The position numbers and the translations under genes were made by a program. The notes under the pieces are model-generated. The model was not told the origin of the DNA. It ran no database searches and worked only from the letters and a program-made list of their open reading frames with translations. Below, piece by piece: positions 20,138-30,322 of a DNA stretch of 42,384 nt; positions within the stretch are counted from its first letter, which is position 1; the number at the start of each line of letters is the position of its first letter. The stretch comes from Pseudomonas phage LPPA56. Location of the stretch: sequence record OR188718.1, one strand, 5' to 3'.

Positions 20138-20373
20138 TGGCGACGGTCAACCCCTGGCGTCGGTTCATCGGGCTCTTACCGGGCGGCGCGCGCACGGTGG
20201 GGGAGGTGATCGACGTCGACGAGGGCGCCGGCACCTGCCGCGTCCGCCTGCGAAACAACGTCGTGATCGCGGCTCGGGGCACGGCGGTGCCGGCCGGGCA
20301 GATGGCGTTCATCAGCGATGGCCTGGTGACCGGGCCGGCGCCGCAGCTCCCCCAGTTCGATATCGAGGTCTGA
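20137..20373 (+). CDS. small hypothetical protein at end of tail module
   Basis: 79 aa, ATGA-coupled start at 20137. Confidence 0.3.
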   Translation: MATVNPWRRFIGLLPGGARTVGEVIDVDEGAGTCRVRLRNNVVIAARGTAVPAGQMAFISDGLVTGPAPQLPQFDIEV

Positions 20374-20400
20374 GCCGGCCGGCTCCAGGCCTTCAACCCA

Positions 20401-20424
20401 AGCCCGCCACCTAGCGGGCTTTTT
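20401..20424 (+). terminator. intrinsic terminator AGCCCGCcacctaGCGGGCT + TTTT upstream of endolysin
   Basis: 7-bp stem, 6-nt loop and T-run read directly. Confidence 0.5.
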
Positions 20425-20446
20425 CATGCCCGGAGGAAATGAAATT

Positions 20447-20860
20447 ATGGGCCAAGAGTGTGATGTAGATGTACTGGCGCGGACGCTGTGGGGTGAGGCG
20501 CGCGGCGAAGGCGCTGCCGGCATGGTGGCGGTGGGCTGGACCATCAGGAATCGGGCCGCCCAGCCAGGCTGGTGGGGGCGGGATATCCAGACCGTCTGCC
20601 AGAAGCCCTACCAGTTCAGTTGCTGGAACAGGGACGATCCCAATTTCCCCTACCTGAGCGGTGCCAAGCAGATTCCGGCGGCGCAGTACCTGCAGGCGCG
20701 CGAGGCGGCGCTGGTGGTGCTGGCGGGCAAGCAGCCGGATCCCACCGGCGGCGCTACCCATTACTACTCCACCAGCATGTCGAAGCCGCCGGCCTGGGCT
20801 GCGTTGGCCAGGCGCACAGTGAAGATCGGCCGGCACATTTTCTTCCGCGACGTGCCGTAG
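20447..20860 (+). CDS. endolysin, SleB-like cell-wall hydrolase (Hydrolase_2 family)
   Basis: ARTLWGEARGEG...VGWTIRNR...YQFSCWN...HYY are hallmark motifs of SleB-type hydrolases. GGAGG RBS 9 nt before ATG 20447. Confidence 0.7.
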   Translation: MGQECDVDVLARTLWGEARGEGAAGMVAVGWTIRNRAAQPGWWGRDIQTVCQKPYQFSCWNRDDPNFPYLSGAKQIPAAQYLQAREAALVVLAGKQPDPTGGATHYYSTSMSKPPAWAALARRTVKIGRHIFFRDVP

Positions 20861-20868
20861 GGGGAGCT

Positions 20869-21363
20869 ATGGGAGCGCTTCTATCCAAGGCCTGGTTGCA
20901 GGCCTGCGCCGCTGTCCTGCTGATCGCGTTAGGCTCCGGGCTCGTCTGGTGGGGGCTGGCCCCGCGCATCGATCTCCAGACCCAGCGCGCTGATGCTGCG
21001 GAAAAGGCCGCCGGTGAGGCCCAGCAACTGGTCAGCCTGCAGGCCGGCGTGCTGGCTGAGCAGCAGCGCCAGATCGGTCAGATCACCGAGATCGACCAGC
21101 GCATGCGAGCGCTGGCTCAGGCCGTTTCCACCAATGCCAGGGTCCAGGGCACGGCCCTTGAGGAGTTACGCCGCAATGACCAGGCTGTCGATGAGTATCT
21201 GCGCGGGCTTGTGCCTGCTGGCCTTGGCCGGCTGTACGAACGGCCCGAGACCACCGACCCAGGCGCCTACCGCGGGCCGACAGTTCTGCCCGCTGGTGCC
21301 GTGCGTCCTACCGGCACGGCCGGCGGTGCTGGTGAACGATCAGTGGCGGCAGGCCCTGGATGA
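20869..21363 (+). CDS. Rz: i-spanin (Rz-like): N-terminal transmembrane segment plus coiled coil
   Basis: MGALLSKAWLQACAAVLLIALGSGLVWWGL TM helix then Q/A/L-rich coiled coil; directly after endolysin. Confidence 0.6.
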   Translation: MGALLSKAWLQACAAVLLIALGSGLVWWGLAPRIDLQTQRADAAEKAAGEAQQLVSLQAGVLAEQQRQIGQITEIDQRMRALAQAVSTNARVQGTALEELRRNDQAVDEYLRGLVPAGLGRLYERPETTDPGAYRGPTVLPAGAVRPTGTAGGAGERSVAAGPG

Positions 21364-21442
21364 CACCGAGGCCGCGCTGCTGAGCTGCGCCAACCAGGTG
21401 CTGGGGTGCATCCAGCGCCAGGACGCCCAACGTCCGAAGTGA
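21176..21442 (+). CDS. Rz1: o-spanin (Rz1-like) lipoprotein embedded in the +1 frame of Rz
   Basis: MTRLSMSICAGLCLLALAGC lipobox (LAGC), Pro-rich mature part, starts inside Rz and extends 79 nt beyond it; GAGGAG RBS. Confidence 0.6.
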   Translation: MTRLSMSICAGLCLLALAGCTNGPRPPTQAPTAGRQFCPLVPCVLPARPAVLVNDQWRQALDDTEAALLSCANQVLGCIQRQDAQRPK

Positions 21443-21451
21443 AGGAGCGGC

Positions 21452-21829
21452 TCAGGGGAGCAGTTTGAAGAGTCGGAGCATTCTTACCGACTCTTCATCT
21501 TGTCCTGCTATTGAGACTTCGCCCCGATTCAGTGTCGTCCAGGCGCCATCGGTGAACGCTGCTAATTGATTGGCCGGAATAAGCTGGTGGATTATTGGAT
21601 AGCGTTCTGTGTAGCACTTCCACGCCCCGATCATGTGCTCTTTAAGCTCATCTTCGGTGTAGGGCGAGCAACGCATGCTGGCGGCGAATTTTGCGGCTCC
21701 AGCGAAGTGCCTGGCCTTCTTGCCTCCTCTGTAGGTGCATGCAATTTGCTTGAGGCATAGAAGGGCTGGGTAGATGGTTAGGCAGCGAAGCCACCAATAG
21801 ATGCCTTGGGCCTCCGGCTCTCCCTGCAT
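21452..21829 (-). CDS. hypothetical protein, AT-richer moron gene (possibly the 3' part of a frameshifted gene)
   Basis: 125-aa ORF. Its reading frame stays open upstream into the 21778..22002 ORF with a ~50-codon overlap. Confidence 0.3.
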   Translation of the reverse strand: MQGEPEAQGIYWWLRCLTIYPALLCLKQIACTYRGGKKARHFAGAAKFAASMRCSPYTEDELKEHMIGAWKCYTERYPIIHQLIPANQLAAFTDGAWTTLNRGEVSIAGQDEESVRMLRLFKLLP

Positions 21830-22002
21830 TCTCTTGAGTAGATCGTTGATAATCTCTCCAGTGTCCAGGTCGCTCTGAGCACGAGATGCGGCATCATTTC
21901 GCCGTTGTTGCTGGTGAGAATTCGGTCAGATGCTAAGTGCAGGAAGTCGGTCTTGAACGTGACCAGTTCGTCATAGTCGAGATAGGCGATTTCGAAGGCC
22001 AT
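21778..22002 (-). pseudogene. hypothetical ORF overlapping 21452..21829 in another frame (possible frameshift or programmed shift)
   Basis: Two ORFs overlap by ~50 codons in different frames with no second RBS. Confidence 0.25.
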
Positions 22003-22185
22003 GGCCGCTCCTTGGCTGGGCAGTTATTTGGTAGGTTTCGAGTTCTCGGCGATCTTCGCCGCCATATGGGCGTCGTCATCGATGCTCAGCGGACGGGTTT
22101 GCTTCCTGGCCTTGGCTCTTTCCCCGGGTGGCAGCGCTGGGTGGGTTGTTCTGAAGGAGTTACGGAGCAGGCATAAAAGGAGAGA

Positions 22186-22683
22186 TCAGGCTATCTGGAA
22201 TGCTTTGGCGAACATATCCAGCCAGGCATCAGGCGCGTTCAGGTTGCGAGTGTCGAAGTCTCGGCCCCAGTGTGCAAGCCAGCTTTCCAATTCGTCACAA
22301 CTGTATTCGCCATTGGCTAGGCCAAGGACAATTGTTACCAGTTCGTGGCCTGGGGCGGTCAACTCGTAGCCATTCATCAACAAGAAAAGGAAACCGGCGG
22401 CTGCTGCCGTGCGCTTGTTGGCGTTGGCAAACGGATGGTTCCGCACGATGCTTTCCATCAGCGTGGCTGCTAGCCGGTACATGTCGTTCGTCTGTTCGTA
22501 GAAACGAATCTGTGCCGGGCGCTGCTGCGAGGAAGACAGCTCATTGGGCTTCAAGACTCCGACCATTTCGTCCGGAGTCTGAAGCCTGATCAGTTGCTGG
22601 TTGATGAAGATAAGCGCGTCAACGGTGAGGTAGCGAATGCCTTCGCAGATTTCACCGTACTGGGAGAGATCCTTCTCGGCCAT
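22186..22683 (-). CDS. doc: Fic/Doc-family toxin (Doc-like)
   Basis: Motif HPFANANKRTAAAAGFLFL matches the Doc core HxFx(D/N)xNKRTA (P1 Doc: HIFNDANKRTAL). Confidence 0.75.
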   Translation of the reverse strand: MAEKDLSQYGEICEGIRYLTVDALIFINQQLIRLQTPDEMVGVLKPNELSSSQQRPAQIRFYEQTNDMYRLAATLMESIVRNHPFANANKRTAAAAGFLFLLMNGYELTAPGHELVTIVLGLANGEYSCDELESWLAHWGRDFDTRNLNAPDAWLDMFAKAFQIA

Positions 22684-22686
22684 GGC

Positions 22687-22878
22687 TTATACCTTGGCCA
22701 GCTCCTCAAGCGCTTTCTCATAACGCTGGAAAGCCATGCAGAAAGCCTTCTCAAGCTGGACCTGGTACTCACCTTCAGCCGGACGCGCCACTGCCTCGCC
22801 GCGAGACTTGTCGCGCGGGGGAATGTAAATGCGATCAGGTTTTTTCAGTGCGTGGCCCATGGCTATCTCCGTGCCCAA
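22687..22878 (-). CDS. putative antitoxin (Phd-like position)
   Basis: 63-aa ORF immediately upstream of doc with a 3-nt gap. Confidence 0.45.
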   Translation of the reverse strand: MGTEIAMGHALKKPDRIYIPPRDKSRGEAVARPAEGEYQVQLEKAFCMAFQRYEKALEELAKV

Positions 22879-23088
22879 TTTTTCGGCGTTCCGACCGTTG
22901 GATTTTCAACAGTGGTAACGCCTTTTCAAAATGGGGGCCGATTGTTTCGCTGTCAACTGCTCATGTCAACGAAATCGGCGCTTCATCGACCTATCGTTCA
23001 GATAGGTGGTAACGATGAGACAACGGGCGTGATTTTCCGTTCGCCTTTTGGCGTTCGGGAAATGTTCGTCAGAAAGTCGTCGCTGTTT

Positions 23089-23304
23089 TTGTACGTCGAA
23101 TTGTACGTTTCAGCGTAGGTTCAATGGTTTGGATGTGCGCAAACTATTGATTTAGATGGTGCCGGCACCAGGAGTCGAACCCGGGACCTACTGATTACAA
23201 GTAATCCGCCCTTAATTGCAAAATCAACGGTTTACGACGTTTCTTTGTACGCGCTTGCTGTCGTTCAGGCCGCATTCTATGCGGGGTGTTTCGATCATTG
23301 TACG
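23089..23304 (+). promoter_or_regulatory. attP region: four direct TTGTACG arm-type repeats flanking the tRNA-derived core
   Basis: TTGTACG at 23089, 23101, 23245 and 23298, all in one orientation, on both sides of the core 23157-23201. Also GTGGTAACG at 22912 and 23006. Confidence 0.5.
23157..23201 (-). tRNA. partial tRNA: 3' 45 nt (anticodon loop through CCA) of a tRNA-Thr(UGU)-like gene = att core; not an intact tRNA gene
   Basis: Reverse complement reads cttgtaa-tcagt-aggtc-ccggg-TTCGACT-cctgg-tgccggc-a-CCA (T-loop, T-stem, acceptor 3' strand). 5' half absent: no complementary acceptor strand or D-arm. Confidence 0.7.
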
Positions 23305-24464
23305 CCCCCGTTCGGGCCTCCCGAGGGGGCGACTATAGGTACGCTGAAGTCATAGACGTCCAGCATCGACTCGTCACGGTGGCCGCTGGCCTCCTGCTTT
23401 TCTCCCCGGGTGCCGGGGGTGTCAGTGATGCCGCGGCGTTTAAGGTCGTGCATGCCGAAGCGCTCCTCGGCGGTGATGATGTTCTTCTCCAGGGCCTGGG
23501 TGATGAACCGCTGCCAGGCGGTGTCTAGGCTCGACTTCCGGAGTGGCCCGCCGTGGGCTGCCACGATCAGCCGGCGCTGATCCGCTGCGATCGGTACCGG
23601 CATGCGCTTCTTCTCCCACACGTCAGCACGGACTTTCTTTGCTGCATCCCAGGCCGCGCGTAGGCGCGGTGTCCAGCGGACGATGTTGTCGCGGCTGCCC
23701 TTGCGGCGGTTGGTCAGCACGCCTTCTTCTGTTTCGTTCGCGTCGGTGAGCGTGACTGTCTCGATGCCGCGCAGGCGGCACAAGTAGCTGATCTCCATGA
23801 CATACCAGAGGTAGGGCGCGCAGGCGCCTTTCTGGCCGCGCACCAGTTGGCCCTGCTGATAGGCGAACTGAATGAGCTGCGTCATAGCAGCCGGCGCAGG
23901 CAGCCGGCGGCGCTTTCGTTCTTTGGGTGCCTCGATGCCTTTGGCGACGTTCTCGTCGACAAAGCCCCGGTTCTTGCCCCACTGCAGCACCAGACGCAGG
24001 TAGCGCAGGGCGTGGGCCGCCTTGGATGGCGTGCCTTGCTCCGCGATCTTGTCGATCAGGCGCTGGACCAGGGGAGAGGTGAACTTGCGGACGGCCAGGT
24101 CGCCCAGCGTCTTGCCGGCGAGTTGGGTCGGTACGCCAAGCAGCACGTCGCGGCTGTAGCTGTAGTCTTCCTGGGTCTTCTGGCCGAGGCTGGTGAACCT
24201 GATGCTGGCGTGATACTGCTCGCACAGGTACCGCAGGCTGTCACGGTCGATGCCCTGCAATTCTTCGACGATGCGGTGCAGTTCGGCCAGGGTGACCGTA
24301 GCGCCGCACAGGTTCTTGCGTACCCGGCGGCCGGCTTCGTTCATGCTCAACCGGTACCAGCAGCCGGCGCCGCGGTGGTCGAAATAGACGTCCTTCGGCA
24401 GAGAAGCTTGGTCTATGTGGGCAGGGATGTGAGGGTTTGCCTGGCGTTTTCTTCCGCGTCTCAT
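23295..24464 (-). CDS. int: tyrosine integrase (phage integrase family)
   Basis: C-terminal HDLKRRG...HRDESMLDVY recombinase-type motifs. Adjacent to attP core. Start at ATG 24464 (ATGA-coupled to xis) preferred over track start 24545. Confidence 0.8.
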   Translation of the reverse strand: MRRGRKRQANPHIPAHIDQASLPKDVYFDHRGAGCWYRLSMNEAGRRVRKNLCGATVTLAELHRIVEELQGIDRDSLRYLCEQYHASIRFTSLGQKTQEDYSYSRDVLLGVPTQLAGKTLGDLAVRKFTSPLVQRLIDKIAEQGTPSKAAHALRYLRLVLQWGKNRGFVDENVAKGIEAPKERKRRRLPAPAAMTQLIQFAYQQGQLVRGQKGACAPYLWYVMEISYLCRLRGIETVTLTDANETEEGVLTNRRKGSRDNIVRWTPRLRAAWDAAKKVRADVWEKKRMPVPIAADQRRLIVAAHGGPLRKSSLDTAWQRFITQALEKNIITAEERFGMHDLKRRGITDTPGTRGEKQEASGHRDESMLDVYDFSVPIVAPSGGPNGGVQ

Positions 24465-24676
24465 CTGAGTATGTCTGGTCCGTAGTGTTCCTGGTTGCCT
24501 GCGGCGAGGCCCGCGGCATGGTTGATCAGTTCTGTGGTGGTCCATGGGCCCTTGCGGCCGTGGAAAATCTTGATGCCCTGCTCACGCAGCACGCGCTCGA
24601 CATCGGCGCGGCGCACGTAGCCGGTGACCTGCTGAAGATCCTCGAAGTCTAGGATGCCGGCGACATTGCTGCTCAT
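24461..24676 (-). CDS. xis: excisionase-like DNA-binding protein (DUF4224-like)
   Basis: 70 aa from ATG 24676 (AGGAG RBS). Sequence QQVTGYVRRADVERVLREQGIKIFHGRKGPW resembles DUF4224 proteins that precede integrases. Confidence 0.5.
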   Translation of the reverse strand: MSSNVAGILDFEDLQQVTGYVRRADVERVLREQGIKIFHGRKGPWTTTELINHAAGLAAGNQEHYGPDILR

Positions 24677-24692: not shown

Positions 24693-25151
24693 TCAGGCGG
24701 CGACTGGCGAGGGCCAGGCGCCGACAGCGTCATAGATGCGGGCGGCCTGGGCTTCGTCCAGGGTCACGCTGTCGGGAATTGCAATCCAGCCGGAGCTGAC
24801 GATGTGCTTCGAATTACAGCTGGCGAGGTGTTCGCGGTAGAAGGCCTCTATCACGTCGGTTAGCTGGTCGGCGAGGTAGACGCCTTGTGGCGCCACCTCG
24901 GTGCTCTTGATGTAGCGCTTGCCGAACTGGTCGATGCACAGGGCGCTGATGTAGATGCACCAGGGATGGGTGAAGTCGCACACCGCGTCAACCATGGGGT
25001 GCGACTTAATCAGCCTGCCGGTTTTCCAGTTCACTAGGTGCTGGTCGCCGGCTGGATCGATGTTGATCACGGCGGCGTGGTTGGTGCGCACCAGTGCCCG
25101 GCAGTTGCGCTCGAGGCGGGCGCGCATGTTGTGGGGCTTGCGGGTGCTCAT
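24693..25151 (-). CDS. hypothetical protein
   Basis: 152-aa ORF, ATGA-coupled to the upstream gene. Confidence 0.4.
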   Translation of the reverse strand: MSTRKPHNMRARLERNCRALVRTNHAAVINIDPAGDQHLVNWKTGRLIKSHPMVDAVCDFTHPWCIYISALCIDQFGKRYIKSTEVAPQGVYLADQLTDVIEAFYREHLASCNSKHIVSSGWIAIPDSVTLDEAQAARIYDAVGAWPSPVAA

Positions 25152-26662
25152 TTCGCCCCCTTGAACATGCGGCGCTCGGTCTGGCCGACGAGCCAGGCCT
25201 TCGGCACCTCATTGCCGGGCGAGGCGGTGAGCAGTTCGGCAGCACGCCACAGCGCGTCACTGGTGCGAAGATCGGAATAGGCCATGATCGCTTCCCAGTG
25301 GCTTTCCGCCTCTTCGTCATCGAACTCGGACAGCAACTGAACGATGGCAAAGGTCTGGGCGTGCTCCGGGGCACCGGAGTCAAACATGCCGGCAGCGTTG
25401 AGCGAGTATTTCCTTCCTTCGGCCGCTACCAGAGCGGCGGCATTTAACGGCACGCTGTGCTGAGCCTGGTTGTCGATCAACGCGATGATGTGGTCAGGCA
25501 TGGTCAGCGCCTCGTAACGCACCATCAGGTCCGAGGCCTCATCTCCGCTGAGTAGCGGGTTCTTGAGTGCGACAGCAATTCGGCGCAGTTCCGAGTGGTC
25601 GCCGGACTGAGTCTGGGTTACTGGGGCGTCGGTGCGGGCCCAACCAGCTGAGCACATGGCAGCTTCGTCCACTGCTTGGATGTCATTCGTAGAGCTTAGG
25701 AAAACCACAATTGCCTCGGGGTTGCACTGCGCCCGAATAGCGTCATGGAACCGCTTGCATTCGTGAACCTGCTCTTCGTTGAAGTCGCCGACCAGGGCGA
25801 TTACCGAAGCATCTACGGGAACATCCTTGATGCGCGCGGCGACCAGGGCTTCGAGTGCTTTGACCCTGGCCAGGGCAGCGTCGCGCAGTTTCTGGAGCGC
25901 CCTGGATTCAGCTTCCCAGTGGTCGGCAGCGCCTCGCAGTTCCTTAATCTCCATTTCCATTCCAGCGCACTGATGGCGCGCAGCATCGCCTTTTGCGGCC
26001 GCGTCGTTTGCCATAGCTAGTTCGGCTTCCAACTCCGCGCACCTGGCCAGGGCGGCGTCGCGCTCTTGCTCCAGTTGGTCGATACCAACAGACAGGTAGC
26101 CGTCCATCATGCCCATCATGCGGTGTTCGAGGGCGTCGGCGCGCTCGTTGGCGGCGTCTCGCTCTTTTTCGCAGCGCCCCCAGCCGTTCGTTGCGCTACC
26201 GAGCTTGAAGATCAGCTCGGTGTTGCGCTCTCGCTGAGATTGAAGCTCCGCCCGCAGTGCTTCGACTTCGGCCTGGGCGACTTTCAGTTGATCCTCCAAG
26301 CGCTTGGCATAGCCGCGAATGCCTTGCACGGTCCAGCCACCATCGATGGCGTCTTGCGGCAGCCCTTCGCAGATACGCTCGAACTGGCGCAGGCGCACGG
26401 CGATTTCGTTCTTGTGGTCTCGCTCCTGTTCGGCCAGGTATTGCCAGTGCTCGGCAGCCGGCCATGGGGACGGAACAACCACTGCGTCGACCGTAATTCC
26501 CTCTGGCATCGGCAGGGCATTCAGGTCGGCCGCGTGCTTGTCGGCGTCTTCGCGGCTGAATGCTGCGTACAGTTCGTCCGGCCCTTGGGCATGTACAGCC
26601 CACAGTTCCGGCCGCTCCGCCTCGGCGATGGGCAGGCTGTCTTGTTGGGTCTTCTGGCTCAT
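25148..26662 (-). CDS. hypothetical coiled-coil protein, translationally coupled to the DGR reverse transcriptase
   Basis: 504 aa. Residues ~80-290 are E/A/L/R-rich heptad-like. Start ATG 26662 overlaps the RT stop (ATGA). Confidence 0.5.
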   Translation of the reverse strand: MSQKTQQDSLPIAEAERPELWAVHAQGPDELYAAFSREDADKHAADLNALPMPEGITVDAVVVPSPWPAAEHWQYLAEQERDHKNEIAVRLRQFERICEGLPQDAIDGGWTVQGIRGYAKRLEDQLKVAQAEVEALRAELQSQRERNTELIFKLGSATNGWGRCEKERDAANERADALEHRMMGMMDGYLSVGIDQLEQERDAALARCAELEAELAMANDAAAKGDAARHQCAGMEMEIKELRGAADHWEAESRALQKLRDAALARVKALEALVAARIKDVPVDASVIALVGDFNEEQVHECKRFHDAIRAQCNPEAIVVFLSSTNDIQAVDEAAMCSAGWARTDAPVTQTQSGDHSELRRIAVALKNPLLSGDEASDLMVRYEALTMPDHIIALIDNQAQHSVPLNAAALVAAEGRKYSLNAAGMFDSGAPEHAQTFAIVQLLSEFDDEEAESHWEAIMAYSDLRTSDALWRAAELLTASPGNEVPKAWLVGQTERRMFKGAK

Positions 26663-27729
26663 GCTGCCTCCTTGAACGTCTTGCGCAGGTTTGCGGAGAC
26701 AGAGCGGCCGCGCTTCTGCACGATCCTGGCCAGCCTCCGGCGGGCGTTGTGGCTGTGGCTGGCCTGGTCCAGCAGGCCGAAGTAGCTGTTGGCGGTTTCG
26801 CGCAGCTGTTCCCCCGGCGCGGCGCTTACCTGGCGCAGGGCAGTTTCCACGGTGCGCGGGCGTGTGACGCGGCGGTGCGGAAGGATCACCTGGCCAACGA
26901 AATCGATCCCGCGGGCGATGGGCTGGAGCACGGTCTTCGCAGGGTTGAGTCGGGCATGTAACGTGTCGGCCAGGAATGCCTCGATCTGGTTGTGCCAGGC
27001 ATTCAGCTGTTGGGGAGACTCGGCCAGCAGAACGAAGTCATCGACGTAACGGATGTAGTGCTTCACGCGCAGCTGGTGTTTCACGAACTGGTCCAGAGCG
27101 TCGAGGTGCACGTTGGCGAAGAACTGTGACGACAGGTTGCCGATAGGCAGGCCCAGGTACGCCGGCTGGGCGGTGAGCCGCTTGTGCTGCGGCACGCGAT
27201 TCAGCAAGCGGGTGGGGCTGCGGGTTTCGTAGTTGGTGCGTGGGTCGTGCCAGAGGATCTGTAGGGCAAGTGCCCGCCAGGTTGGCTCGGGGATGCGCGC
27301 GATCAGTTGCTGCTCGAGCACCCGCTTGTCGAGGGAGATGAAGAAATTGGACAGGTCGCACTTCAGGTAGAAGGCGCGGCGTTTCCAGTTGCGGGTGATG
27401 CTGCGCACCTTCTTCTCCAGGCGCTGGGCGCCATAGAGTGTGCCGCGGCCCTTGATGCAGGCACAGCTATCAACAATGAAGGAGCGCTCGATGCGCGGGC
27501 CGATGTGGTTGTACAGCAGGTGGTGGACGATTCTGTCTCTGAAGTCGGCGGCCCACACCTCGCGGTGCTTCGGGTGGGTCACGACAAAGCAGATGGAGGC
27601 GCCGGGTTGGTAGGCGCCGGTGTTCAGCTCATGGTGGAGTTGCATGATGTTGCGCTCCAGGTTGAACTCGAATGCAAGGGCCGACTTGCTGTTGCGCTTG
27701 CTGCGCCGGCAGTCGTAATAGGCCTGCAT
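26659..27729 (-). CDS. DGR reverse transcriptase
   Basis: RT motifs incl. IRYVDDFVLL (YxDD), NLSSQFFANVHLDALD, QPGASICF. N-terminus FSIEALMQAYYDCRRSKR aligns with DGR RT N-termini. Start ATG 27729 with GAGG RBS; the track ORF extends to 28077 across the TR and is probably not translated. Confidence 0.85.
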   Translation of the reverse strand: MQAYYDCRRSKRNSKSALAFEFNLERNIMQLHHELNTGAYQPGASICFVVTHPKHREVWAADFRDRIVHHLLYNHIGPRIERSFIVDSCACIKGRGTLYGAQRLEKKVRSITRNWKRRAFYLKCDLSNFFISLDKRVLEQQLIARIPEPTWRALALQILWHDPRTNYETRSPTRLLNRVPQHKRLTAQPAYLGLPIGNLSSQFFANVHLDALDQFVKHQLRVKHYIRYVDDFVLLAESPQQLNAWHNQIEAFLADTLHARLNPAKTVLQPIARGIDFVGQVILPHRRVTRPRTVETALRQVSAAPGEQLRETANSYFGLLDQASHSHNARRRLARIVQKRGRSVSANLRKTFKEAA

Positions 27730-27775
27730 GAGTGCCTCGATAGAAAATCCAGCATGGCCGCCGGTGTTGCCGTTC

Positions 27776-27877
27776 GATGCTGCGGACGGCGAAAGCGGGC
27801 CGTGCGTTGTCCTTGTCGTCGTTGTTCTGGTTGCCATCGTCGAAGTTCTGGATCCACGCGTTGTTCGGGCCGTTCTG
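27776..27877 (-). repeat. DGR template repeat (TR)
   Basis: 102-bp copy next to the RT. Every site that differs in the other two copies is an adenine on the minus strand. 8 AAC codons in the VR frame. Confidence 0.85.
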
Positions 27878-28051
27878 CGCCAGGTCGTGCTATCTACGTC
27901 GCGCTGCCGAAGGCCGAGGCCGATCAGTGGCGAGACTGCGCAGGGCCTGCCGGGACGATGCCCGGCGGTTCCCCTGGTGCGCATGACGGTGGCCTTGTGA
28001 GCCAGCGGCACGACCAGAATCAAAATCGCGCTGGTGTGAGGGCCGTGGCGC

Positions 28052-28414
28052 TCACACGGCTGGCGATGCGGCGGCATTTCGTTTCCACCCAGTGGCCTGC
28101 CGGCCTATGTCGTCGGTGATTTCAATGGCTCGGCCGTGCTGGGCTCCGCTGAGCAGCCCGAGGTCGACCGAGAGGCGCAGCATCAGTTCGACGACCTGGA
28201 TGCGTTCCAGGATCAGCTGAATGTGCGCTACCCGTTCCTGGCCGCCGGCCGTGTTGGCGCGGAAGATCAGGATCGACACGTCGATGCACTCGTTGAGCAC
28301 CTTTTCCCCGAGGGTGCGCTTGAAGTCGCGGCGCCACCCTTTGGAGAGGTCGGCTACAAGCCGGGCCAGTTCTCCGGCGCGTTTGTAGATCGGCAGGTGT
28401 TGGGCGATGGCCAT
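28052..28414 (-). CDS. avd: Avd-like accessory variability determinant (four-helix-bundle protein)
   Basis: 120 aa, basic, predicted helical, lying between target gene and TR as in the Bordetella phage mtd-avd-TR-brt cassette. Confidence 0.7.
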   Translation of the reverse strand: MAIAQHLPIYKRAGELARLVADLSKGWRRDFKRTLGEKVLNECIDVSILIFRANTAGGQERVAHIQLILERIQVVELMLRLSVDLGLLSGAQHGRAIEITDDIGRQATGWKRNAAASPAV

Positions 28415-28428
28415 GCTGGAAAACTCGC

Positions 28429-29091
28429 TTACTGCGCGCTGCGCGCGCAGTTGTTCAGAGCATTAAGTGGTGAAGGGATGAGGATTCTGCGGACGGCGAA
28501 AGCGGGCCGTGCGAGGCCCTTGCCGTCGATGCCCTGGTAGCCACCGCCGAAGTACTGGAACCACGCGCTGTTCGGGCCGTCCTGCGTGCTGGTGAGGCAC
28601 CAGCCCTTGCCCTGAAACTGTTCAGGGATGTGTGCCCAGCACAGGTACGCCTCTGCGCGGGACGGCAGGTAGAGATCCGTGTGTCCTTCAGCTTCCTGCT
28701 CGGTGGCCCATAGCGCAGCAGGGTGATCGATATCATGAGCGGTCAACGCACGGGTGTTGGCCAGGCCGTCGCGGATGTGATCTGCGCCGGTGACCCGGTA
28801 GCCGCGGCCGCCGTAGGTGATCGAGTCGATCTGTGCATGCTTCGGGGCGATAAGGTGGTAATCCGGTTCGCCATTTTCGCCACGCATCACGCCGACGTAA
28901 GTGCCGCCCTGGCCGTGCCAGTGCTGGCCGATAGCGGGCGGAGTGAGGTGGGCATCGAGAGTGATCAAATTGCCCTGGATGCTGCCGCTGGGTATCAGGC
29001 CTGTTTCCTGTTCCAAGGTGTGGCGGGCGAGCAGGGCGTTGGTGGTGATGAGCGTGGTGTCGCCGATTGCCAGAGTGATTTCGTTCTGCAT
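28429..29091 (-). CDS. DGR target protein 1 (DUF1566 / C-type-lectin-fold-like C-terminus carrying VR1)
   Basis: C-terminus WCLTSTQDGPNSAWFQYFGGGYQGIDGKGLARPAFAVRR = VR1. DUF1566-like motifs (GLANTRAL..., ...ARPAFAVRRI). No signal peptide. Confidence 0.8.
   Translation of the reverse strand: MQNEITLAIGDTTLITTNALLARHTLEQETGLIPSGSIQGNLITLDAHLTPPAIGQHWHGQGGTYVGVMRGENGEPDYHLIAPKHAQIDSITYGGRGYRVTGADHIRDGLANTRALTAHDIDHPAALWATEQEAEGHTDLYLPSRAEAYLCWAHIPEQFQGKGWCLTSTQDGPNSAWFQYFGGGYQGIDGKGLARPAFAVRRILIPSPLNALNNCARSAQ
28483..28584 (-). repeat. DGR variable repeat VR1
   Basis: Differs from the TR only at TR-adenine positions. Followed 32 nt 3' by an 8-bp GC hairpin (28432-28450). Confidence 0.85.
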
Positions 29092-29153
29092 GGTCTAGTC
29101 CTCAAAAATTTGAGCCGACCGCGCGCGGGGCGCGCGGCAGGAAAGCGAAGTGG

Positions 29154-29768
29154 TCAAGGGGTGACTTTGATTCTGCGGACGGCGAAAGCGGGCCGTGCGC
29201 TGACCTTGCCGCCGTCGGTCTGGTAGCCATCGCCGAAGAGCTGGATCCACGCGCCGTACGGGCCGTCCTGCGTACTGGTCCAATAACTGCGGGCCTCCAG
29301 CGCCTCCTCGCCGCCATCCTGGAAGATGGCAATGGGGCTCTGCCCGGGCGCCACGGCGGTGTACGGGTAGCCCGGCGGCAAGCTGCTGGGGTTGTCGCCA
29401 TCGCGGAAGCTGCACCAGTTCTCATCGGTGGTGGGCTTGCAGACCCGATAGATCATTTCGTTCTCGTCGCGGGCGCCGAGATACCAGTCGTTGTGGCCGC
29501 CAATCGAAAGGCCGAGCGCCCAGGCGGCCAGTTTCGAGCCGGCTTCGGCCATGGCCTTGGTGTTGGCCAGGCCGTCCACGAAGCTATCGGCGTCCGGGAT
29601 CAGCAGTCCGTACTCACCCCAGTGGATGGGAGCGTGGAAGCCCAGTGCTTTGGGTGCGCGGATGAGGGCGAAGCGCTCGCCCTGAATCTGGTACTGGCCC
29701 ATGTAGAAGCCGCCCTCGAACGGGGTGCCGAGGACGGTTGGCAGGGCGATGCTGGTCAGTGCGTTCAT
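29154..29768 (-). CDS. DGR target protein 2 (paralogue of target 1, VR2 at C-terminus)
   Basis: C-terminus YWTSTQDGPYGAWIQLFGDGYQTDGGKVSARPAFAVRRIKVTP. Shares the GLANT...W...YL core with target 1. Confidence 0.8.
   Translation of the reverse strand: MNALTSIALPTVLGTPFEGGFYMGQYQIQGERFALIRAPKALGFHAPIHWGEYGLLIPDADSFVDGLANTKAMAEAGSKLAAWALGLSIGGHNDWYLGARDENEMIYRVCKPTTDENWCSFRDGDNPSSLPPGYPYTAVAPGQSPIAIFQDGGEEALEARSYWTSTQDGPYGAWIQLFGDGYQTDGGKVSARPAFAVRRIKVTP
29169..29270 (-). repeat. DGR variable repeat VR2
   Basis: Differs from the TR only at TR-adenine positions. Followed 32 nt 3' by an 8-bp GC hairpin (29119-29137). Confidence 0.85.
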
Positions 29769-29779
29769 GTTTCATTTCC

Positions 29780-30322
29780 TCAGGCATTCGCGGTGCGATG
29801 GGTGATGGAGAGCAGATCCATCAGGCGGTAGTGGAAGCGGGTGCTGGCTTCTTCGATGGACCAGGGCTTGATGCGTGCCGCCAAGGGCTGGATACCGTTC
29901 AGGCAGGCCCACTCGGCGGGGTCGGCAGGCATCAGGTCGCGGCGCTCGGTGGCCAGCGCCACCAGGTCGGCGTGCTTGACTGACTCCGGCAGTTCCTTGT
30001 CCAGGTCGAACCGGGTGCAGATGGCTTCCCAGATGTGGTCCTCGACTTCGCGGTAGGCATGTATCTGCTTCTTGAGCGGCCGGACCATGTCACCGACGTA
30101 GGACTCGGTGGCGTCATGCAGCAGGGCGGACAGGCAGTCGGTGCTCGGCACCAGGTCTGCCACCAGGTAGCTGTGCTGGGCAACGCTGTAGTGCTGGGAC
30201 ACGTGGCCGTTGAACCGGCAGCAGTGGGCCAGGGCGTGGGAGATATCCCGCGGATCGATCATTTCCGGCTTGGGCTCGAATAGGTCGAAGCGCTTGCCGG
30301 TGTAGGTGAGAATCCAGGTCAT
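29780..30322 (-). CDS. HD-domain phosphohydrolase (YfdR-like 5'-deoxynucleotidase)
   Basis: HD motif context HSYLVADL...LLHDATESYVGD; 180 aa as in prophage YfdR. Confidence 0.7.
   Translation of the reverse strand: MTWILTYTGKRFDLFEPKPEMIDPRDISHALAHCCRFNGHVSQHYSVAQHSYLVADLVPSTDCLSALLHDATESYVGDMVRPLKKQIHAYREVEDHIWEAICTRFDLDKELPESVKHADLVALATERRDLMPADPAEWACLNGIQPLAARIKPWSIEEASTRFHYRLMDLLSITHRTANA

Follow-up and report, generated by a model that had tools for sequence, protein, structure and literature searches.

The 42,384-nucleotide sequence of Pseudomonas phage LPPA56 (record OR188718.1; this whole stretch is here called the window) very probably carries a genuine diversity-generating retroelement (DGR) that has been active recently and has acted on both of its variable repeats (VRs), as judged by comparing sequences within the window and among its relatives. 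The cassette lies on the minus strand in the order target 1, target 2, avd, template repeat (TR) and reverse transcriptase (RT), and all of its open reading frames (ORFs; RT, avd and both targets) are intact. The DGR is complete, and its carrier is a lambda-like temperate siphophage of Pseudomonas aeruginosa that holds it in the early-left (integrase-proximal) operon. The identification is in itself ordinary: the class is already known, and tens of thousands of DGRs have been catalogued so far. Cassettes with two DUF1566 targets are also an already described class, and two targets are the norm in the family of the window DGR rather than unusual. An initial annotation, made from the DNA alone, had called a complete DGR with RT, TR, Avd and two targets. 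That call is borne out by a DGR-type RT, an Avd bundle, adenine-specific mismatches and lectin-fold targets, and further by a GC-rich invariant block and by a GC hairpin that follows the VRs only. All of the listed parts are present, but a 191-nt RNA, RT-15, had been overlooked in the gap between avd and TR.

Repeats and the adenine pattern

The genes, repeats and VR-specific elements of the cassette are as follows.

29154-29768, minus strand: target gene 1 (distal), 204 aa, DUF1566/C-type-lectin-like fold; VR1 corresponds to residues ~166-199
29169-29272, minus strand: VR1; differs from TR by 14 substitutions, each at a TR adenine, and by the marker base
29138-29172, minus strand: VR1 3' flank, candidate distal part of the initiation of mutagenic homing (IMH) site; G-poor, TT at an 8-nt period, first base the marker A 29172
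29119-29137, minus strand: GC-rich inverted repeat after VR1, CCGCGCGC-CCC-GCGCGCGG; fold z-score -3.4
28429-29091, minus strand: target gene 2 (proximal), 220 aa, paralogue of target 1 with 32% identity
28483-28586, minus strand: VR2; differs from TR by 14 substitutions, each at a TR adenine, and by the marker base
28452-28486, minus strand: VR2 3' flank; G-poor, periodic TT, first base the marker A 28486
28431-28451, minus strand: GC-rich inverted repeat after VR2, ACTGCGCGC-GCA-GCGCGCAGT
28052-28414, minus strand: avd, accessory four-helix-bundle protein, 120 aa
27776-27879, minus strand: TR, intergenic; mutable adenines 27807-27874, invariant GC-rich block 27780-27805
26659-27729, minus strand: DGR reverse transcriptase, 356 aa, YVDD; RT stop and start of the following ORF overlap in ATGA (26659-26662)

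Three direct copies of the repeat were recovered by a repeat finder, independently of the initial annotation, and their gap-free minus-strand alignment is 104 nt long. The copies and coordinates described before were right, but the length of 102 bp fell short of the true homology, as two extra 5' bases (CG) also match. The three-copy alignment has 20 variable columns, of which 19 are TR adenines and one is a marker base directly 3' of GTCCGCAG, which is C in TR (27779) and A in VR2 (28486) and VR1 (29172). With 30 adenines among 103 positions, the hypergeometric probability of all 19 variable columns falling on adenines by chance is 2.2e-13. Compared with each other, VR1 and VR2 show 14 differences, every one at a TR adenine. 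The variable adenine sites cover 27874-27807 (68 nt), and the 71-nt segment with 19 variable and eight constant adenines that had been described is reproduced when the count starts at the first A (27876). In the frame of the VRs the TR reads QNGPNNAWIQNFDDGNQNNDDKDNARPAFAVRSI, and 29 of its 30 adenines occupy the first or second codon position; the intergenic location of this RT-proximal copy and its eight AAC codons were both seen again. The VRs form the C-terminal parts of two paralogous ORFs, with the same coordinates (28429-29091 and 29154-29768) as in the initial annotation. The window contains the invariant 26-mer GCACGGCCCGCTTTCGCCGTCCGCAG exactly three times, where 0 would be expected, and a search with this block found no fourth repeat copy, differing at non-adenine positions or otherwise, and no third, remote VR in the window.

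The reading that these are ordinary paralogous repeats, diverged by point mutation or gene conversion beside an unrelated RT, has practically no probability left and is already refuted by the adenine-restricted pattern. The two target genes are indeed true paralogues, but every variable column among the three copies apart from the marker base lies at a TR adenine, the intergenic copy is the AAC-rich one, and the same pattern is seen in ~300 VRs of the family, where 96% of mismatches are at A. The paralogues are moreover only 32% identical outside the VR, yet the scaffold bases of their VRs are identical.

Beyond the invariant end, TR and VRs had been described as differing at the one marker base. 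The marker, C against A, stands, but it is not the sole difference, because each VR then has its own G-poor flank of ~35 nt and a hairpin, and the homology between TR and VRs ends about there. Across the family the G-poor flank with periodic TT follows the VRs and is absent after the TRs (231 VR vs 111 TR flanks); it is ~30-35 nt long and AT-enriched, as in CCCTTCACCACTTAA or, in other genera, ATTCAGTAATTCATTCATTTAATC, and a GC hairpin comes next. The inverted repeats after the VRs have a stem of 7-9 bp and a loop of 3-4 nt. Of 300 VRs, 40% are followed by a perfect stem of 7 bp or more; among TRs the share is 3% and among random sites 5%. The stems show covariation. This pattern of flank and hairpin fits the known rule of an IMH followed by an inverted repeat, and the G-poor flank may be the VR-specific recognition part of the IMH. 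No canonical terminators were found at the VR hairpins.

Around 160 related loci (L-numbered here) were gathered by RT searches. Five of them, L083, L084, L085, L114 and L094, have RTs 94-100% identical to that of the window and the same TR as the window, base for base; the 12 VRs of these five and the window are all distinct, differing almost only at TR adenines. Compared with L083, whose RT differs from that of the window by 1 aa, the window has 52 differences over 3455 nt; 33 of these are in the two VRs, 32 of them at TR adenines (VR1 17/17, VR2 15/16), and none is in TR or RT-15. Populations show the same restriction: in 39 distinct full-length P. aeruginosa target-1 alleles, all 11 positions with at least four residues are TR-adenine codons, within residues 168-190. 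When mismatches are pooled over the family (n=3986), 96% are at TR adenines. The proposal that diversification has acted on both VRs, and the expectation that population variants would be confined to TR-adenine sites, thus agree with what is found, and the comparisons indicate that both VRs have been rewritten recently in the window's lineage. In three other loci (L091, L129 and L133) the VR copies carry many non-adenine mismatches, and the proximal VR of L133 has no adenine mismatches; these loci are candidates for decayed or freshly reset DGRs.

It is improbable that this architecture diversified both VRs in the lineage while the window copy is now silent, either unexpressed or struck by a cryptic inactivating change. 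Such silence would be in keeping with activity evidence that comes from relatives rather than from reads or a population of this exact genome, with a promoter scan that found no sigma-70-like promoter in 24-36 kb, near the cassette, and with the decayed appearance of some relatives, the three loci just named. On the other hand, the ORFs are intact, the RT is a single residue off that of L083 with every catalytic residue kept, and the TR and RT-15 are identical to those of relatives with differing VRs. The operon-like gene spacing also makes a local promoter unnecessary.

Proteins of the cassette

The proteins also point to a DGR. The RT has the YxDD motif of the DGR type, as had been noted, here as YVDD, and its best match in the PDB is bRT of the Bordetella phage BPP-1 DGR (8ub7, E 9e-35); other solved RTs follow at E 4e-8 (group II RT) and E 3e-4 (retron-type RT). 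It matches phrog_1423 with E 1.6e-107. An ungapped alignment shows that bRT residues K29, F66, R74, D138, I181, G182, Q187, D215 and D216 are conserved in the window RT, of which F66, R74, I181, G182 and Q187 are reported to contact the template base or the incoming dNTP, and K29 to be the lysine of the N-terminal extension (NTE); the conserved residues include the catalytic aspartates. That the RT is instead of the retron, group II intron or defence (DRT/Abi) kind and the repeats are a coincidence is scarcely credible. It does have a generic RVT_1 match and weak, sub-threshold matches to group II, retron and Drt models, and its GenBank relatives are often labelled 'retron-type', but the NCBIfam scores for the two clades named in the initial annotation as arguing against a DGR are far below their curated cutoffs (72 bits against 300 for group II, TIGR04416; 47 against 235 for retron, NF038233), bRT leads the other solved relatives by 27 orders of magnitude, and the gene context is avd and TR. 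Rfam scans found no group II intron and no retron RNA, RT-15 being their sole match, and on these scores and scans membership of either class was rejected.

Avd was reported to lie between target and TR, and here the profile check stays below cutoff, but a match to the PHROG 'Avd protein of DGR' (E 6e-26) and a fold superposition support the assignment. The AlphaFold2 (AF2) model has four helices and a mean confidence (pLDDT) of 92; superposed on bAvd 4dwl it gives template modelling (TM) scores of 0.81/0.90 with a root-mean-square deviation (rmsd) of 1.4 A, and it also matches the Avd of 8ub7 with TM 0.8-0.9. Sequence searches against PDB chains, with the single sequence and with a 33-member profile, returned no match, and the link to bAvd therefore rested on PHROGs and the fold search. 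All 33 of the Avd homologues match Pfam bAvd PF22296 (best E 1e-16), and the window Avd is 46% identical to that of Burkholderia phage Magia. By its model, the window Avd is a divergent member of the family and not a different fold.

The two targets match phrog_4245 with E 3.5e-24 (target 1) and E 2.8e-26 (target 2), and across the DGR family the proximal and distal targets form two old orthologous lineages. Relative to target 1, target 2 has an N-terminal extension and lacks an insertion of ~43 aa. In the AF2 model of target 1 (pLDDT 95.9) the last three strands are VR-encoded. This model finds its best fold match in the PDB in the C-terminal domain of Legionella Lcl (8q4e, E 4.6e-5, probability 1.00), followed by many C-type lectin domains that match weakly (E 0.1-2, probability no higher than 0.14); a target profile searched against the PDB gave a marginal match to Lcl only (E 0.0017). 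Most target homologues at 50-96% identity carry precomputed PF07603 matches and are named DUF1566, from P. aeruginosa. By eye, no signal peptide, lipobox or tail-attachment domain is evident in the N-termini of the targets, no predictor having been used. Because the genes are located in the early operon and have no evident N-terminal signal peptide or tail-attachment domain, the pair of DUF1566 targets may be binding proteins that are expressed early and lie outside the virion, instead of receptor-binding parts of the tail. This raises the question of what a hypervariable lectin-fold pair does in a phage early operon beside the integrase, outside the tail module.

Several observations weigh against reading the cassette as a recently active DGR. 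Diversification is read from the sequences of relatives and populations, not from reads of this genome, and the VRs of relatives contain three rare non-adenine differences. The Avd scores 35.1 bits (E 1.3e-8) against the NCBIfam model DivGenRetAVD NF033474, whose cutoff is 80, and 28.2 bits against Pfam PF22296, whose cutoff is 40. Target 1 reaches 21.5 bits with PF07603 (DUF1566/Lcl_C) against a gathering cutoff of 34.9, and target 2 has no match to PF07603. The start codon of the RT is uncertain as well, with GTG, TTG or no start in relatives at the position of ATG 27729. This ATG is preceded at 27730-27775 (minus strand) by an in-frame conserved peptide, FSxEAL (H-A-x-F-S-x-E-A-L), without a start codon, and the annotated RT aligns from bRT residue 20, without counterparts of the first ~18 residues of bRT. 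A true RT start upstream, or an RNA element, is a candidate for 27730-27775.

RT-15 RNA and a proposed model of cDNA priming

Three features on the two sides of the TR bear on how cDNA synthesis might be primed.

27878-28068, minus strand: RT-15 RNA (Rfam RF03018), 191 nt, overlapping the end of avd by 17 nt and reaching into the first TR bases
28015-28024, minus strand: RT-15 linker, UUUGAUUCUG; CUGG invariant, candidate primer strand, with G28015 the candidate priming nucleotide
27773-27782, minus strand: TR 3' flank, CAGCAUCGAA, complementary to the RT-15 linker; G27783 is the predicted first template base

The RT-15 match obtained with cmscan scores 172.2 bits against a gathering threshold of 82 (E 7e-42) and covers model positions 1-192 of 192. 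The RNA was found in all 22 of the sampled relatives with cmscan and in 157 of 161 loci with nhmmer, and its 3' end lies 5 nt or less from the TR start in 140 of 144 loci. It consists of a hairpin, P1, a single-stranded linker and a multi-branch domain closed by UCGUGC/GCACGA. Its elements are arranged 5' of the TR as a 10-bp tetraloop hairpin, the linker with CUGG, 1 nt, and a closing stem, rich in GC, with a partner strand that ends 7 nt ahead of the TR. On the other side of the TR, the gap to the RT is 24-51 nt in the family and poorly conserved (46 nt in the window), and the stretch downstream of the TR in the window folds no better than shuffles (z -0.6). In the searchable literature we found no paper on RT-15 and no function assigned to it.

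In the structure of the BPP-1 bRT-Avd-RNA complex (bioRxiv) Sp47-56 is the primer strand, paired to TR117-129, and templating begins at G117. After a gap of two nucleotides, Sp59-70 forms the stop by pairing with the strand just upstream of the TR, and an 11-bp tetraloop hairpin binds Avd. Since BPP-1-like elements occur in the same order 5' of the TR here, and the gap between TR and RT is short, we propose by analogy a circularly permuted DGR RNA in which RT-15 would be the 5' counterpart of the BPP-1 spacer and G27783 the first template base, a proposal that we put at not quite even probability. With G27783 as first template base, it would be explained why the marker base is never transferred.

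On the BPP-1 paradigm, the RT-Avd complex would bind an RNA spanning RT-15 and TR. The invariant CUG of the RT-15 linker would then pair with the invariant CAG at the TR 3' end and so provide the primer, and the next RT-15 helix, the one ending 7 nt before the TR, would act as the stop. The TR would be reverse transcribed with random misincorporation opposite adenines, and the cDNA would replace the homologous VR at the 3' end of each paralogous target gene, presumably guided by the GC-rich invariant block, the VR-specific flank and the GC hairpin. The outcome, seen here as a pattern, is randomisation at ~19 adenine sites in 12-15 codons of the ligand-binding face, with the scaffold codons left unchanged.

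The proposed long-range helix between the linker and the TR 3' flank pairs at nine of ten positions in the window, the mismatch being the marker base. Over 91 distinct sequences, 79% of cells are paired, compared with 74% when shuffled (none of 500 shuffles reached the observed value) and 26-48% when the partner is slid. Its covariation score is 0.186 against 0.091, and one of its pairs occurs as GC in 52, UA in 17, CG in 8 and AU in 3. In an unbiased duplex search the RT-15 linker was the best partner in 58 of 117 loci. These figures have to be set against the following: the covariation statistics are inflated by the shared ancestry of related sequences, pairing at one position of the helix holds in just 60% of loci, the window helix has its mismatch, and in the subclade of the L008 and L011 type the linker is not complementary at that register. 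Extending the model to the whole family, so that Avd-type hairpin, primer strand and stop duplex would all lie in RT-15 and the primer strand would span ~240 nt to reach the TR 3' end, is a step that we take with more doubt than conviction, though it may well prove right.

The linker is also perfectly complementary to the VR1 flank over 10 nt. Recognition of the VR flank instead of the TR was considered and rejected, as positions 7-9 pair better with TR flanks family-wide. Pairing with the TR is thus favoured over pairing with the VR flank, which leaves room for a role of the linker in target recognition.

The helix between linker and TR 3' end may instead be real but serve only as a clamp, or as the equivalent of the BPP-1 stop duplex, with priming taking place downstream, inside the 5' part of the RT coding sequence. 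We regard this as rather doubtful, if well within reach. Duplexes between upstream and downstream strands flanking the TR have been predicted in the literature as stop elements in 207 of 278 DGRs, RNA elements may overlap coding sequence, and a short hairpin with a U-run occurs 3' of the TR in the window's subclade. What this reading has to accommodate is the short and, across the family, unconserved stretch between TR and RT start, a TR-downstream fold that does not exceed shuffles, and the fact that RT-15 repeats, 5' of the TR, the BPP-1 order of Avd-binding stem-loop, primer strand and stop duplex. If priming by RT-15 is correct, this RNA gains a function and the architecture of the DGR ribonucleoprotein is modular. 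An upstream RNA domain driving cis-priming would generalise the BPP-1 ribonucleoprotein model, and it would matter for DGR-based mutagenesis tools.

Known systems and phage context

The initial annotation took BPP-1 as the paradigm. This holds for the mechanism, but not for the targets, which are DUF1566-type proteins of ~200 aa, of the Legionella LdtA type, in an early-left operon and with no tail fibre. The BPP-1 DGR (mtd-avd-TR-brt) shares with the window the gene order target, avd, TR, RT, a homologous RT with the residues contacting template and dNTP kept, the Avd fold, adenine-specific mismatches, a VR at the C-terminus of a lectin fold, a GC block, and a GC inverted repeat after the VR only. 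It differs in having one target rather than two, and its target gene follows the tail genes, whereas the window targets lack the N-terminal part of a tail fibre and lie beside int. In BPP-1 the 140-nt spacer (Rfam RT-10) is 3' of the TR, whereas RT-15 is 5' of it.

The C-terminal domain of Legionella Lcl is the founder of DUF1566. The window DGR resembles that of Legionella pneumophila and category 'd' (CLec2, DUF1566) in placing the VR in a lectin domain of the DUF1566 type, with a fold match to Lcl. It differs from the Legionella system in that LdtA is a surface lipoprotein encoded on a genomic island and the window targets are genes of a phage early operon. According to Wu et al. 2018, about half of the category 'd' targets are short and consist of DUF1566 only, and 13% of DGRs have two targets. 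Weinberg et al. 2017 linked RT-10 with the spacer of BPP-1 and, for other RT motifs, went no further than speculating on a role in DGRs; in the present DGR family, Rfam RT-15 has a fixed position adjoining the TR 5' end and a covarying helix to the TR 3' end.

RTs of the same family are found in Burkholderia phage Magia (MT701587, 63% identity) and Pseudomonas phage Haboob (OR683404, 66% identity). Both have short lectin-fold targets, avd, RT-15, TR and RT in an early-left operon, in other phage backbones and hosts. The announcement of Magia noted a potential DGR (PMC7883833). The DGR of Haboob, a phage of P. aeruginosa, is unannotated, and the Haboob paper makes no mention of a reverse transcriptase, retroelement or DGR. 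With these two as cultured relatives, the window offers a textbook-quality natural two-target DGR in a phage of a genetically tractable pathogen.

Phages LPPA36, Lodos and Turba share positions 1-20373 with the window at 95-98% identity, and their early region corresponds to much of its 29.9-42.3 kb stretch; none of the three has the cassette. A megablast search of 50,697 phage records matched only the flanks, not the cassette. In Lodos (L001, L165) and Meadow (L002) the slot downstream of the HD-hydrolase gene holds a 2.1-kb gene for a cytosine-specific DNA methyltransferase, and this slot, at 29780-30322 in the window, looks like an exchangeable site for accessory genes. Homology between the window and L083 is confined to 29729-26275. 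With the otherwise unrelated prophages L083, L084, L085 and L114 it begins 39 nt inside target 1 and ends just past the RT stop or ~390 nt beyond it. Such confined homology suggests that the cassette moves as a module between phage backbones. Target-1 residues 4-13, at the boundary of the cassette homology, occur as two haplotypes among P. aeruginosa alleles.

Transcription of the cassette runs toward int, a direction shared with the cI-distal early-left genes. In 86 of 161 loci an integrase of one cluster lies downstream of the RT, at a distance of 0.1-4.9 kb, and in no locus does it lie upstream; as the greedy ORF caller gave many antisense artefacts in this GC-rich DNA, only robust clusters were used. 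Of the 146 loci with enough upstream sequence, 110 have two adenine-biased VRs and 20 have at least three. A third and up to a fifth adenine-biased VR occurs in ~20 loci (L003, L019, L021, L024, L028, L029, L052, L057, L082, L161 and others). Most of these extra VRs lie 2-5.5 kb farther upstream in the same early operon, with a flank of their own and often a hairpin; the window has none of them.

Between the conserved tail module and the integrase gene, window positions 20373-24545 are not common to the closest phages. This region contains small ORFs, including that of a likely membrane protein (20869-21363), and the integrase gene itself (23295-24545, minus strand). The ORF whose start overlaps the RT stop by ATGA encodes a 504-aa coiled-coil protein (25148-26662, minus strand), and its first ~130 codons travel with the cassette in L083.

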